DNA of 32,928 bases from a virus. The notes under the pieces are model-generated. The model was not told where the DNA came from and ran no database searches. It saw only the letters and a list, made by a program, of their open reading frames with translations. The stretch lies in the UHGV virus genome UHGV-0143082, one strand, 5' to 3'. The position numbers and the translations under genes are program-made. Below, piece after piece: positions 4,060-32,076 of the stretch (positions are counted from its first letter, which is position 1; every line of letters begins with the position of its first letter).

Positions 4060-4130
4060 GTTGGTTTTTCTCCAAGGATTTACCGACAACCGAAGCCCTG
4101 ACTGTTACCGCAGTTGGGGCTTCAACTTTT
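4060..4130 (+). ncRNA. Candidate sar-like antisense RNA covering the ant ribosome-binding site
   Basis: Extended -10 TGcTATACT at 4045-4053 on +; predicted start about 4060; hairpin 4092-4123 (gaagccc/gggcttc) followed by U-rich tract; arrangement mirrors P22 sar. Confidence 0.3.
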
Positions 4131-4839: not shown

Positions 4840-5073
4840 ATGGAGCAACAACAAGGGTCGCCATTATCATTGATTATTATGGTGATTTTTTTCGTTTTTA
4901 TCTTTTTTATACCTGCGTTAAAAATATCCAAAAAGGCCGGTTTTGACTGGAAGATGGCTGTATGTTTAACAATCCCTGGCTTTAACGTGGTGGCGTGGCT
5001 CGCGCTTGCGTTCATGGATTGGCCAATTCACAAGTATCTACCAAAAGATGTGAATCGTAAGGATGCAAAATGA
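4840..5073 (+). CDS. Small hydrophobic membrane protein, unknown function
   Basis: 77 aa with two predicted TM segments; start 2 nt after the mnt stop; stop overlaps next ATG. Confidence 0.5.
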   Translation: MEQQQGSPLSLIIMVIFFVFIFFIPALKISKKAGFDWKMAVCLTIPGFNVVAWLALAFMDWPIHKYLPKDVNRKDAK

Positions 5074-27129: not shown

Positions 27130-29022
27130 TTAATACTCCGTCACGTTTTCCTGTCGCCACGCCTCGTCATATTCCGATTTCGGCATATTGGCGATGTAGC
27201 TATATGGCGATCCTGATTCAAGTTGCAGGAACTGGTGCGATTGCTCGTCAAGGAACAACGGGACACCACCTTCCCAACCTTCGCCGTTACGTTGTTTTTC
27301 AAGCATCAAAACAGATGCCGGAGATGCCAGTAGCTGTTCGTCCTTCTCTGACATCTTTTCACCACTCTGAACTCTCTGTAACGCTCTCTCGCGAGCCTTG
27401 TTACGCCAGATGATGAAAAGGTTGTCTGTCAGGTCTGTTATCGCTCCAGAGCCTTTTACGTCCATTTTCCCGGTTGGTTTTTCTTCGCTGTCTCCTTTTC
27501 TGGAGTGAGTAACGAGAATGACGTGGGAGTTTGTTTTGTTTTTGAAGTCGCAAATCGAGTCAACAAACGCCTTCTGCCCGTTATAGTCATCGTCGCCTAT
27601 GCCACATTTCATCAGGCTGTCGATGATGAATAACTGGATCCCGTATCGGCGGCGAGCGTAGTCGAATATTTCGATCAGCCTGTCGGCTTTCGCCGTTCCG
27701 GTCAGGCCAAACACCCAAAGTCTTTCGTCATAAAATTTAAATGCAGAGTCAATTTCCAGCACTGGCGGCATCTTGCAGCACGTCGCCTGACGGGTAAGGC
27801 GCTTAAGGAGAATACCAGGCTTCAGCTCAAGTGACGCGATGCACGTCTTCACACCCTGACGCATTGCCTCAAGTGCCATATGCCCGACAACCTCCGTTTT
27901 TCCGTGACCGTTCACACCATTGACCAGCGTCAACTCGGCCTCACGGAACTGGAATTTATCTGCCAGAGATTCCCACGGTGGATTAAACAGATACTGCTGC
28001 TTGCCGTAGAAAGCGTTGATAGTGTCCTGGTAAAACTCTCGCGCGCTGTAGAGTTCTTCAGGATCGAAGTAGGATGCCGTGCCGATGTACTGCCAGATTT
28101 CATCCTCGGTAACACCGTTCATCAGGCATTCGTTGATGTCTTTGTACGGCAGAGTAACAAGACGGCAACGATGTTCACCGAGTCGGCTTGCGATTTCCCT
28201 TGCGGCTTCACGACCAACATCATCAACGTCCATCGAGATGAATATTTCCTCAAACCTGTCGAGGTTGTGATACTCAAACTCAATCCACTGCTGCTTAGCG
28301 CCTTTCCCGCCACCAAACGGTACGGATAACGCCGAGATGCCGTATTGCGCATAGCTCATACAATCAATTTCGCCTTCGCAAAGTACAACCGCCCTCACGC
28401 CAGCGTCCAGAGCCTGCCATCCGAACAGACAAGGTTCGCAATCACCTTCTGCCATAATGACTTTCTTCCCGCCCGGGCGCTCAGTGCTGATTCGCTTTAC
28501 CTGCAACAACTCACCATCGCGTTTGTACGGAAGCACCAGAGCATCCAGTTCTCGCTCTCCATTCCACACCTTGCCGCTGACAACCTCGTAGCGCTTTACG
28601 ACTTCTGGCGATATGCCACGCGATTGCAGGTACTCAAGATGGGATTCTGTTCTGGTAACGTAGCGGGCAATTTTCTTGCGATCAGGTCTGGAGAATTTCT
28701 TCTCACGTCTGGCATCGAAATGGTGATCGTCATCCTTGATACCGAGAAATGCTTTCGCTTCCTGCATAGCCTGATGCAGGTTAATTCCTCGACATGCCAT
28801 CCACAAATCAAGCATGTCACCGCCGTCTCCCTCAGCGAAATCAGCCCATTTTTTCTTGCCGCTAAGGTTGACCTTAAGGCTGTTTCCCTTGTCACCGTTG
28901 ACGTTACCGGCAACCCACTCATGCCCCTCTTTCTTGCCGTTTGGCAACAGGTGCGGAGCCACCCTGTCAACCTGCGCCCAAAGCAGGTCGCTAAGTTCTG
29001 ATGGACTCAAAGGTGCCTCCAT
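27130..29022 (-). CDS. Bifunctional primase-helicase replication protein
   Basis: 630 aa; TOPRIM-like acidic segment (VLCEGEIDCMSY) in the N-terminal half, helicase-like C-terminal half. Confidence 0.75.
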   Translation of the reverse strand: MEAPLSPSELSDLLWAQVDRVAPHLLPNGKKEGHEWVAGNVNGDKGNSLKVNLSGKKKWADFAEGDGGDMLDLWMACRGINLHQAMQEAKAFLGIKDDDHHFDARREKKFSRPDRKKIARYVTRTESHLEYLQSRGISPEVVKRYEVVSGKVWNGERELDALVLPYKRDGELLQVKRISTERPGGKKVIMAEGDCEPCLFGWQALDAGVRAVVLCEGEIDCMSYAQYGISALSVPFGGGKGAKQQWIEFEYHNLDRFEEIFISMDVDDVGREAAREIASRLGEHRCRLVTLPYKDINECLMNGVTEDEIWQYIGTASYFDPEELYSAREFYQDTINAFYGKQQYLFNPPWESLADKFQFREAELTLVNGVNGHGKTEVVGHMALEAMRQGVKTCIASLELKPGILLKRLTRQATCCKMPPVLEIDSAFKFYDERLWVFGLTGTAKADRLIEIFDYARRRYGIQLFIIDSLMKCGIGDDDYNGQKAFVDSICDFKNKTNSHVILVTHSRKGDSEEKPTGKMDVKGSGAITDLTDNLFIIWRNKARERALQRVQSGEKMSEKDEQLLASPASVLMLEKQRNGEGWEGGVPLFLDEQSHQFLQLESGSPYSYIANMPKSEYDEAWRQENVTEY

Positions 29023-29501
29023 GCGTTTCCTCTGCGGATTGTGGAAATTTGCATTTCACTCACTCCGTATTTAGTGGATAGTTCGCTTAGTTTCATACCA
29101 ACAGAATTCCTGATATCAATCACATCAGTTTCAGATAGGTTTGCCCTACCATTAAAAACTCCCTTTGCGCTTTTCAGTCCGATGCTAAAAGCATGTTTTA
29201 AATTCTCTGAGCAGGTACACCATTCCAAGTTCCAAATGGCGTTATCCGATTTGTCGCCGTTGATATGATTTACTTCTGGCTTGCAATACGGATTTGGGAT
29301 AAATAATTGAGCTACAAGACGATGAACTTTTAACGTCTTCTGAATCCCATCGGAACACAAAGTGACTCTTAGATAACCCTTGTTATCCGGAGATGGATTC
29401 AAAAACCTGCCTCTTAAATGTGAATAAACACGACCGTCTTTGGTTACAGAGTATTTACCCTCATAACCAGGTATATATTCTCCAACTTCAAGGCTCATCA
29501 T
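29007..29501 (-). CDS. HNH homing endonuclease (NUMOD4-like N-terminus plus HNH)
   Basis: 164 aa; YEGKYSVTKDGRVYS motif; HNH core VNHINGDKSDNAIWNLEWCTCSENLKHA; AT-rich gene; SD GAGGGA before ATGATG. Confidence 0.75.
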   Translation of the reverse strand: MMSLEVGEYIPGYEGKYSVTKDGRVYSHLRGRFLNPSPDNKGYLRVTLCSDGIQKTLKVHRLVAQLFIPNPYCKPEVNHINGDKSDNAIWNLEWCTCSENLKHAFSIGLKSAKGVFNGRANLSETDVIDIRNSVGMKLSELSTKYGVSEMQISTIRRGNAWRHL

Positions 29502-29608: not shown

Positions 29609-30469
29609 TCACCTGTCGAAAAACACGTAGCCAGTTTTCGATACGGTGATTGCGGATGATGGTTTGGATTGTGGTTGAATAGTTTCTGGCTTCTCGTCGT
29701 TCCAGCGTTGACCGTTCAGGTAGCTCGATGGTAACAACCTGTCGAATCCGAACTGCTTACCATTCCTGCATGCGATGTCTTCTGCCAGCATCGTGGCAAA
29801 CTCGCTTGCCGTACCCCTGGTAGTTTTACGCCATTCCCTGAACTGTGTTCTGAATGCCGAAGCTGCGTTTTTCTTCCCGGCTTTCCGCATGCCTGCACAC
29901 CAGAATATTTCCTCGAATGCCTTGTCGGTTTCTTCGTGACGGTCATGTGATTTTTCACACTCCGTCCGAACACTTTCGGACATAGTGTTTTTATTATTTC
30001 TTTTTTCTTTTGTAATAGTTTCTTTTGTGTGTCCCTGTTTTGGTGACAGCGCTGTCACCGTTTTGGTGACACTTTTTGTCACCAATGCAGTGACATTATC
30101 ACCAGAGTAGTGACACCCTTCTATTTGCCATTCCTCGATGTTCTTGTTAGGCCCGATTTGCTGGCCTTCGCGAAGGATAACCTTCATCGCGATAAGCTCA
30201 TTCTTGGCCTTGTTTACCTTCTGTCTTGGCAGCCTGGTAATTTGAGCTAACTGACTATCAGAGATGCGATCCATCTTTTTACCGTAGCCGTATGTTTTAC
30301 GGCATATGGCGTGGGCAACCTTGCTCTGATTTTTCGTTAAATCTGCGCCGATAAGCTCTTCATACAGGGCATTTGCAAGACGGGTATAACCATCTTCAAC
30401 TTCTGCCACACGACGCTCCACAGGCCGTTGTGAAGGCCTTAAATGTGTTACGGTTGCAAGATTACTCAT
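29609..30469 (-). CDS. Replication initiator, lambda O-like N-terminal domain with divergent C-terminus
   Basis: N-terminal region resembles lambda O ([24 protein letters not shown]...[25 protein letters not shown]...GPNKNIEEW); iterons and AT-rich tract inside the gene. Confidence 0.75.
29981..30120. repeat. Replication origin: four iterons plus adjacent AT-rich tract inside the O-like gene
   Basis: Units GGTGACA-N5-TGTCACC at 30042-30059, 30065-30083, 30087-30103, 30107-30118 with about 22 bp periodicity; AT-rich 29985-30030 downstream in the direction of O transcription. Confidence 0.6.
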
Positions 30470-30608
30470 GACCTTTCTCCTTCTGCATCAGCTTCACTTT
30501 TTCCAACTCAGCCCGGAATCGACCAGGCTGCTTGAAGCTGGACAGGAAGCGATCACGTAGTATGTGTTTGTGAATTTTGTCCTGGTAAGGACTGAGTTGT
30601 TTTGTCAT
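30462..30608 (-). CDS. Small ORF (48 aa) between cII and the O-like gene
   Basis: [48 protein letters not shown]; stop overlaps O start region; below track cutoff. Confidence 0.3.
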
Positions 30609-31378: not shown

Positions 31379-32076
31379 AGAAAGAGCGTGAAACTTTCTC
31401 GCAGAGGCTTGCGCTGGCCTGTGATAAAGCGGGATTACCTTTGCATGGTAGGCAGGCTGATTTAGCTGTCAGGCTTAAGGTCACACCAAAAGCCATTAGT
31501 AAATGGTTCAACGGGGAGTCAATACCAAGAAAAGACAAGATGGAATCTCTGGCTTCGGTGCTGGGAACTACTGCTGCATATCTGCATGGCTATGCTGATT
31601 ATGACGGTATCACGGTAAATCATCTATCAAGATCAAATGATTCTTATCGTGTTGATGTATTGGATGTTCAGGCGAGCGCCGGGCCAGGAACCATGGTTTC
31701 CAATGAATTTATAGAAAAGATAAGAGCAATTGAATATACGCCCGAGCAGGCAAGAATTTTATTTAATGGAAGGCCACAGGAAAGCGTAAAAGTCATCACG
31801 GTTCGCGGTGACAGCATGGAGGGAACCATCAATCCGGGAGATGAGATCTTTGTTGATGTATCCATAACCTATTTTGATGGCGATGGCATTTATGTGTTTG
31901 TATACGGGAAAACAATGCACGTTAAGCGCCTGCAAATGCAAAAGAACAGGCTTGCCGTCATCTCTGACAATGCCGCTTATGATCGATGGTACATAGAAGA
32001 AGGTGAAGAAGAGCAACTTCACATTCTAGCCAAAGTACTCATTAGGCAGTCAATCGATTACAAGCGATTCGGATAA
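31369..32076 (+). CDS. cI: CI-type prophage repressor (HTH plus LexA-like S24 peptidase domain)
   Basis: N-terminal HTH (RLALACDKAGL...QADLAVRLKVTPKAISKW); C-terminal autocleavage domain with Ser in VRGDSMEG and Lys in HVKRL; alternative start ATG 31324. Confidence 0.8.
   Translation: MVQQKERETFSQRLALACDKAGLPLHGRQADLAVRLKVTPKAISKWFNGESIPRKDKMESLASVLGTTAAYLHGYADYDGITVNHLSRSNDSYRVDVLDVQASAGPGTMVSNEFIEKIRAIEYTPEQARILFNGRPQESVKVITVRGDSMEGTINPGDEIFVDVSITYFDGDGIYVFVYGKTMHVKRLQMQKNRLAVISDNAAYDRWYIEEGEEEQLHILAKVLIRQSIDYKRFG

Follow-up and report, generated by a model that had tools for sequence, protein, structure and literature searches.

A predicted lambda-type replication origin with TGTCACC iterons inside the O-like gene of a mosaic P22-like phage or prophage of Escherichia coli

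Introduction

The replication origin of phage lambda lies inside gene O, where the O initiator binds four iterons of ∼20 bp; phages P22 and L have different repeats (PMC8022706), and class-specific iterons inside O-type genes are already established (PMC8022706, PMC2629481). The smallest unit that lambda O binds is the 19-bp inverted repeat; at low protein concentration the inner iterons fill before the others and iteron 4 is the weakest, and unwinding requires supercoiled DNA (PMC7466680). Origin binding by lambda O resides in its N-terminal 162 aa (Wickner and Zahn 1986, as cited in PMC2629481). Several related phages carry comparable annotation in their sequence records. The phi80 origin also lies inside an O-type gene, with four annotated gp15 binding sites; the P22 origin lies inside the O-type gene 18 and is annotated as a rep_origin "similar to phage lambda"; and the ES18 record marks a rep_origin "similar to lambda ori" at the equivalent place.

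Plasmid iteron origins, such as those of F (RepE), R6K (pi), and pPS10 (RepA), likewise place closely spaced initiator-binding repeats by an AT-rich unwinding element, and the plasmid encodes its own initiator. Their iterons are usually direct, asymmetric repeats that are bound by monomers and lie outside the rep gene.

Here we describe a locus in virus genome UHGV-0143082, the whole analyzed stretch of which (32,928 nucleotides) is referred to as the window. Sequence matches identify the window as a P22-like phage or prophage of E. coli with a mosaic genome, matching best overall to phages E212, vB_EcoP-720R6, and CUS-3. We propose, with a probability of about 0.87, that positions 29957-30115 form a phage replication origin of the ori-lambda type, the roles in binding, unwinding, helicase recruitment, and the palindrome being assigned by analogy with lambda. 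Its repeats are palindromic and lie inside a coding sequence, which sets them apart from the plasmid iterons.

Results

A full-length O-like gene is followed by an endonuclease gene and a primase-helicase gene. The genes that frame the locus are as follows.

29609-30469, minus strand: O-like replication initiator gene, 286 aa (open reading frame, Pfam match, and match to phage Sf101)
27130-29022, minus strand: primase-helicase gene, 630 aa, intact (Pfam Toprim_2, AAA_25, and DnaB_C)

Residues 20-114 of the O protein match Pfam family Phage_rep_O (PF04492) with an E value of 1.1e-37; a PDB sequence search with the whole protein gave a best E value of 0.69, to an unrelated protein. The layout comprises a predicted N-terminal origin-binding domain (residues ∼20-114; N-domain), a linker encoded by the iterons (residues ∼118-147), and an ES18-type C-terminal domain (C-domain). 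At the nucleotide level the gene is 99.9% identical to the Sf101 gene annotated "replication protein O," 99.2% to that of mEp043, and 98.6% to that of SEN22. Upstream, on the same strand, are a cro-like ORF, cII (PF05269), and a DUF2740 ORF; downstream are an HNH/NUMOD4 endonuclease ORF and then the 630-aa ORF with Toprim and DnaB-like domains.

The endonuclease insertion between O and the primase-helicase is rare: 5 of 5,426 E. coli genomes carry it, none of the phage records does, and it is absent from related phages. It could disturb expression of the partner, and it is the one feature that might mark this copy as an inactive relic, its architecture intact, in a decaying prophage. We regard that explanation as very unlikely. 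The O gene is full length and nearly identical to those of the isolated phage Sf101 and of mEp043, the iterons are identical to those of phage PhiR12_1 and of prophage locus L015 (see below), and the ORF for the primase-helicase is intact. Such HNH genes typically behave as free-standing homing elements and do not impair the function of the genes beside them.

Four palindromic iterons lie at the domain junction of the O gene. TGTCACC and GGTGACA half-sites gather at 30030-30115, corresponding to nt 355-440 of the 861-nt O gene, between the N- and C-domains; the claim in an earlier note on this DNA that the origin sits within the O-like gene thus agrees with the position of the array. The true repeat unit is TGTCACC-N5-GGTGACA, a 19-bp palindrome present in four consecutive copies with 0 to 2 mismatches each, numbered here along O transcription, with sequences given on the O strand.

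30097-30115: iteron 1 (first along O transcription), TGTCACTACTCTGGTGATA, 2 mismatches to the consensus, arm read as Cys-His
30077-30095: iteron 2, TGTCACTGCATTGGTGACA, 1 mismatch to the consensus
30053-30071: iteron 3, TGTCACCAAAACGGTGACA, perfect match to the consensus
30030-30048: iteron 4, TGTCACCAAAACAGGGACA, 2 mismatches to the consensus

A search of the window for TGTCACCNNNNNGGTGACA with at most 3 mismatches gave six matches, where 1.03 ± 0.99 were expected and none of 100 shuffles reached six. Four of the six are the contiguous copies at 30030-30115 (2, 0, 1, and 2 mismatches in order of coordinate). The other two, at 28890-28908 and 31467-31485, have 3 mismatches each and were not counted as iterons, since finding two is in keeping with the ∼1 expected by chance. 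Iteron starts along O transcription are 20, 24, and 23 bp apart (mean, ∼22 bp, or about two turns of the helix), which bears out the earlier report of four related repeats at ∼22-bp spacing and places them above chance. The unit in which they had been written, GGTGACA-N5-TGTCACC, does not hold up: with at most 3 mismatches it has a single match (30065-30083), a result equaled by 68 of 100 shuffles. That register had joined the right arm of one iteron to the left arm of the next, and the gaps between iterons are 4, 5, and 1 bp. The earlier observation was essentially right, and its repeat register was wrong.

Because each iteron is a palindrome, a dimer site is implied. The right arm of iteron 4 merges into a ACACAAAAGA motif and carries the same deviation in every member of the TGTCACC class defined below, consistent with iteron 4 being the weakest site in lambda. 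At the junction of iterons 2 and 1, the plus strand at 30096-30104 reads TTATCACCA, which is 2 mismatches from the DnaA-box consensus, TTATCCACA. An Rfam scan of the window gave no match at the origin.

An AT-rich tract and a palindrome adjoin the iterons. Two further elements follow the array in the direction of O transcription.

29981-30029: AT-rich tract, presumed DNA-unwinding element, directly after iteron 4 (base composition and alignment with lambda)
29957-29988: palindrome (inverted repeat I5) after the AT-rich tract, with slight overlap; 13-bp stem with 1 mismatch and a 4-nt loop

The tract of ∼45 bp that had been noted after the repeats is present and measures 49 bp, with a GC fraction of 0.204; it is 65% T on the plus strand, so that the O-sense strand is A-rich. 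Among 48-nt stretches of the 32.9-kb window it ranks second lowest in GC content, and only 9 of 32,881 such stretches are as low. The tract is also coding, specifying a 14-residue stretch of the O protein. Elsewhere in the window, a single tract, around 4860-4888, has a lower GC content.

Folded as single-stranded DNA, the palindrome has a predicted energy of −11.9 kcal/mol (z = −5.9; none of 200 shuffles was as good). It is kept in relatives that share its C-domain type, and in one prophage locus (L027) both arms are changed (GAGCGAA/TTCGCTC).

The arrangement matches that of lambda ori in gene position, in the four 19-bp dyad iterons, in their spacing, and in the presence of the AT-rich tract and the palindrome, so the lambda ori architecture named in the earlier note is borne out. 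In both systems the origin region sits within the gene for the initiator, at the junction of the two domains. The annotated lambda iterons start at 39034, 39054, 39078, and 39101, exactly the 20/24/23 spacing of the window, and the array flanks, the AAAAC spacers, and ∼35 nt at the start of the AT-rich tract (CACAAAAGA.ACTATTACAAAAGAAAAAAGAAA) align almost base for base. The lambda palindrome occupies the same relative position (z = −3.4), and the two N-domains belong to the same Pfam family and are 53% identical. The differences are that the half-site is ATCCCTC in lambda and TGTCACC in the window, that the C-domains are unrelated in type, and that the window has a primase-helicase in place of P.

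The iteron DNA appears to be conserved beyond what its peptide requires. The earlier note had described the iterons as encoding a repetitive linker. This is correct for iterons 2 and 3, which encode a repetitive peptide of 16 to 17 residues because they are 24 bp apart and therefore in frame; iterons 1 and 4 are read otherwise. In principle, the repeats could be a mere by-product of a repetitive, low-complexity linker with no function as DNA, and interdomain linkers are often repetitive. The same 7-nt arm, however, is read in three frames: TGT-CAC in iteron 1, xxT-GTC-ACx in iterons 2 and 3, and xTG-TCA-CCx in iteron 4, giving C-H, V-T (twice), and L-S-P, respectively. In a protein-guided codon alignment of 22 nonidentical genes of the class, the mean frequency of the commonest base at third codon positions was 0.905 in the arms (n = 20), versus 0.579 in the N-domain (n = 110) (one-sided Mann-Whitney test, P = 1e-8). 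Moreover, the units are DNA palindromes, which a peptide repeat does not need, and their spacing is that of lambda though the peptide differs. A by-product origin for the repeats is, on this evidence, scarcely credible. Selection on the iteron DNA itself, not on the encoded peptide, is what the codon comparison indicates. A count matrix was built from 85 iterons; it is somewhat circular, because the iterons had been chosen for their resemblance to the consensus. In this matrix the left arm, TGTCAC(C/T), hardly varies, AAAAC is the preferred spacer, and the right arm, nG(T/g)GACA, is looser.

Iteron sequence follows the N-domain. We compared the iteron region in fourteen phage O-type genes plus phi80. 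Each has about four palindromic repeats of ∼19 bp at the equivalent site, followed by the ACACAAAAGA motif, which is present in nearly all iteron classes compared and lacking in phi80, and then by an AT-rich tract. The half-site sequences fall into the following classes.

Lambda and ES18: ATCCCTC..GAGGGA
P22: TTTACC-N5-GGTAAA
mEp213: TTAGCC..GGCTAA
Gifsy-1: ATCCCCGAAAACGGGGAT
phi80 (annotated gp15 binding sites): TTCCCGAAAACGGGAA
phiEt88 and Midgardsormr38: TGTTACC..GGTAACA
Pocitis76 and Bas106: TGTCTCC..AGAGACA
This window, PhiR12_1, and Proteus phage vB_BPM-V3: TGTCACC..GGTGACA

The half-sites of phi80 and P22 thus differ from that of the window. The classes nearest to TGTCACC are TGTTACC and TGTCTCC, in which the arm is changed at positions 4-5 only.

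Two chimeras provide a natural two-by-two swap, in which the iteron sequence goes with the N-domain and not with the C-domain.

This window, O: N-domain of window type; iterons of TGTCACC type; C-domain of ES18 type; partner, primase-helicase
ES18 gp59: N-domain of lambda type; iterons of lambda type; C-domain of ES18 type; partner, T7-gp4-like primase/helicase
PhiR12_1 O: N-domain of window type (100% identical); TGTCACC iterons (identical); C-domain of lambda type; partner, P
Lambda O: N-domain of lambda type; iterons of lambda type; C-domain of lambda type; partner, P

In both chimeras the crossover falls in the AT-rich tract (query positions 389-434). ES18 gp59, epsilon34 gp50, and g341c O share the C-domain of the window at 93 to 95% nucleotide identity, and ES18 also shares the right-hand part of the AT-rich tract, the palindrome, and the type of partner, its gp61 being annotated "primase/helicase; similar to T7 gene 4." With its lambda-type N-domain and iterons, ES18 is the reciprocal chimera. 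Other phages of the same class are Sf101, mEp043, SEN22, vB_EcoP-720R6, and PhiR12_2 to PhiR12_5, whose iterons are presumed from O-gene identities of 98.6 to 99.9%. The first four share the C-domain of the window, whereas in the PhiR12 phages the module is joined to a lambda-type C-domain and P; none of these phages, PhiR12_1 included, has the HNH insertion.

A prophage scan with one genome per bacterial species yielded 27 loci with N-domains 39 to 100% identical to that of the window, 24 of which (L015 to L038; N-domain, 66 to 100% identical) belong to the class of the window. One other (L039; 48% identical) has mEp213-type iterons, and the remaining two (L040 and L041) are truncated ORFs that end before the scanned region and stand outside the comparison that follows. 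Adding the window, PhiR12_1, and the Proteus phage brings the TGTCACC class set to 27 genes. Exact TGTCAC/GTGACA arms number four to nine in the linkers of all 27, versus none in any of 13 complete O genes of other classes, and the exact 20/24/23 spacing is kept in 20 of the 27. Linkage of the iterons with the N-domain, and not with the C-domain, was the same across 41 O-type genes. The comparisons support the view that iterons and N-domain are inherited as a single specificity module.

The class prophages come from at least 15 genera of Enterobacterales, with hosts that include Shimwellia, Citrobacter, Pantoea, Serratia, Xenorhabdus, Photorhabdus, Providencia, Rahnella, Erwinia, Tatumella, and Arsenophonus. 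In E. coli the module occurs in 175 of 5,426 complete genomes (∼3%), where it is annotated only as "replication protein."

The C-domain goes with the type of helicase partner. In the set of O-type genes, C-domain clusters match the type of the next gene, with three exceptions.

ES18-type C-domain: next gene, Toprim/DnaB-like primase-helicase
Lambda-type C-domain: next gene, P (PF06992)
P22-type C-domain: next gene, DnaB helicase (PF03796 and PF00772)
Bas106/Gifsy-type C-domain: next gene, IstB/DnaC-like loader (PF01695)

The exceptions are two prophage loci with a P-like next gene (L026 and L035) and one whose C-domain is unclustered and whose next gene is IstB/DnaC-like (L020). All four partner types, namely, primase-helicase, lambda P, DnaB type, and IstB/DnaC type, occur with TGTCACC iterons. 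These data support a second, independently exchangeable module, made up of the C-domain together with the gene for the helicase or loader. This two-module pattern fits the established two-domain organization of lambda O, with an N-terminal part of ∼160 residues for ori binding and a C-terminal part that contacts the helicase-delivery protein.

The locus belongs to the ES18 subtype, in which an ES18-type O C-domain is followed by a Toprim and DnaB-like protein of ∼626 to 630 aa; it is not of the lambda O-P subtype, since its C-domain groups with ES18 and a P gene is absent from the window. On the basis of co-occurrence, the primase-helicase is the presumed partner recruited by the O C-domain. 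A T7-gp4-like primase-helicase is also a type of enzyme able to use other kinds of origin, and ectopic copies of ori-lambda titrate O and stop phage growth (PMC4488673). These two points could suit an arrangement in which O binds the repeats while initiation takes place elsewhere, the array serving in O autoregulation or titration or in exclusion of related phages. Several observations make this unlikely: the AT-rich tract and palindrome are kept beside the iterons in this type of replicon; the same iteron and N-domain module also occurs with partners of the P, DnaB, and DnaC types, whose accepted mechanism is that of ori-lambda or P22; and the ES18 record marks the equivalent site as its replication origin. 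Initiation at the array itself remains our preferred reading.

A candidate recognition helix varies with the half-site. One segment of the N-domain stood out by its invariance within the class.

30194-30232, minus strand: codons of the candidate recognition helix, residues 80-92 (13 residues; class invariance)

These residues are invariant in 22 nonidentical class members that are otherwise 66 to 100% identical, and they differ from those of the window in all eight proteins of other classes that were compared. The corresponding segments in other classes are as follows.

TGTTACC and TGTATCC classes: ISRSKANIAKNEL
TGTCTCC class: LSRQNVNKAKKEL
Lambda: LPVKRCNEAKLEL
P22: MAPTKCSTAKNEL
mEp213: IHHTHVCAAKRQL

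Half-sites that differ only at positions 4-5 pair with candidate helices that differ at few residues. We provisionally designate residues 80-92 as a recognition helix that covaries with the half-site; the assignment is provisional because the single-sequence AlphaFold2 model of the N-domain is of low confidence (pLDDT, 47; pTM, 0.32). The suggestion that the different iteron sequence implies a distinct initiator specificity draws support from this putative helix, from the chimeras, and from the 41 O-type genes.

Discussion

The comparisons described above support the earlier interpretation of this locus as an origin. In the mechanism that we propose by analogy with lambda, dimers of the O-like protein would use their N-terminal Phage_rep_O domains to bind the four palindromic iterons of 19 bp, and would wrap and bend the DNA into a structure like that known in lambda as the O-some. 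On supercoiled DNA, the nucleoprotein complex would then open the neighboring AT-rich tract of 49 bp, and the C-domain of O would bring in the replicative helicase, which is most likely the phage T7-gp4-like primase-helicase and not P with host DnaB.

What appears to be new here is the class. The records for Sf101 and PhiR12_1 annotate no iteron or origin feature, the Sf101 paper does not mention an origin, and the literature searched on lambdoid O iterons, the phage 82 origin aside, yielded no description of the TGTCACC iteron class and no report of binding, unwinding, or replication-start experiments on a phage that carries it. The phage 82 origin was reportedly sequenced in about 1979 to 1981, and it may belong to this class. 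From sequence comparison, then, the window appears to carry a textbook type of origin whose specificity class is new and unannotated.

A further idea, to which we give rather less than even odds, is that the O family embodies a near-stepwise recognition code and, separately, that the ES18-type C-domain is a dedicated adaptor for the primase-helicase at the O-some. If the first part is true, the determinants of origin specificity would be residues 81, 83, 85, and 87, and a lambdoid origin could be retargeted by exchanging a few residues. If the second is true, the ES18-type C-domain would load a self-contained primase-helicase without P, DnaC, or host DnaB.

The significance of the finding is modest, and the accepted picture of lambdoid replication is unchanged. 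It places the inferred replication origin in prophages of a common group, both P22-like and lambda-like. Phages of the TGTCACC class would not be expected to cross-activate origins of the lambda, phi80, or P22 type, and titration or exclusion would be expected to affect them only when exerted by iterons of their own class. With one N-domain and iteron module joined to four kinds of partner, the class offers a natural data set on modular exchange and on the specificity of initiators for DNA.

A conserved segment at the module joint

The right arm of iteron 4 (window 30030-30048), one of the four 19-bp palindromes within the O initiator gene, reads AGGGACA, and this identical departure from consensus is found in every O gene of the class. 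It is directly continued by ACACAAAAGA, coding for TK[DE], in the window and in all related loci. The motif ACACAAAAGA is common to all iteron classes read, including those of lambda, P22, and mEp213, with phi80 as the exception. Since the mosaic joints between the N-domain and the C-domain of the initiator fall just past ACACAAAAGA, this motif may serve as a recombination joint, may belong to the unwinding element, or may do both.

C-domain type does not track partner type without exception. Two prophage loci, L026 from Tatumella and L035 from Enterobacter, carry a lambda-P-like gene downstream of O, and their O C-domains group with those otherwise paired to IstB/DnaC-like loaders.

The palindrome that follows the AT tract has the arms GTCCGAA/TTCGGAC in the window and in ES18, whereas those of a Providencia prophage (L027) are GAGCGAA/TTCGCTC. 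Because both arms are altered in the Providencia locus and the inverted repeat is nonetheless kept, the sequences hint at selection on the palindrome itself, in a comparison of only five sequences, too small a set to serve as a statistical test.

Variation in iteron number and spacing

There are only three iterons in L030 and L033, and eight, rather than four, in the Arsenophonus endosymbiont of Bemisia tabaci (L038), where the iterons occupy nt 304-488 of the O gene at spacings of 28/20/23/28/20/24/23. The eight-iteron set is apparently a duplicated array, and its enlargement recalls the six iterons of Stx phages. The first interval is 29 bp in three other prophage loci (L034, L036, and L037).

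Genes flanking the initiator, and a second immunity region

Two ORFs flank the O gene, one on either side:

29007-29501, - strand: NUMOD4 + HNH endonuclease ORF, 164 aa, between the O and primase-helicase genes
30462-30608, - strand: DUF2740 ORF, 48 aa (Pfam, E=9e-29)

The DUF2740 ORF and the O start codon share an 8-nt overlap, an arrangement shared with P22 (orf48), Sf101, PhiR12_1, and Midgardsormr38, and it is closely linked to O across iteron classes. The HNH ORF overlaps the start of the primase-helicase gene by 16 nt. It is absent from Sf101, mEp043, ES18, and every other phage record, where the flanks alone are present and O lies ∼107 bp from the primase-helicase gene; among 5,426 complete E. 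coli genomes, the flanks were found in 292 and the ORF in 5. The HNH ORF thus resembles a homing endonuclease of the free-standing kind that has entered the replication module by insertion.

An RNA match was obtained elsewhere in the window:

4060-4127, + strand: sar RNA, RF00262 (Rfam, 97.4 bits, E=5e-20)

The sar RNA is an antisense RNA of P22 type that belongs to the immI/ant region, and the element therefore has a P22-like second immunity region.
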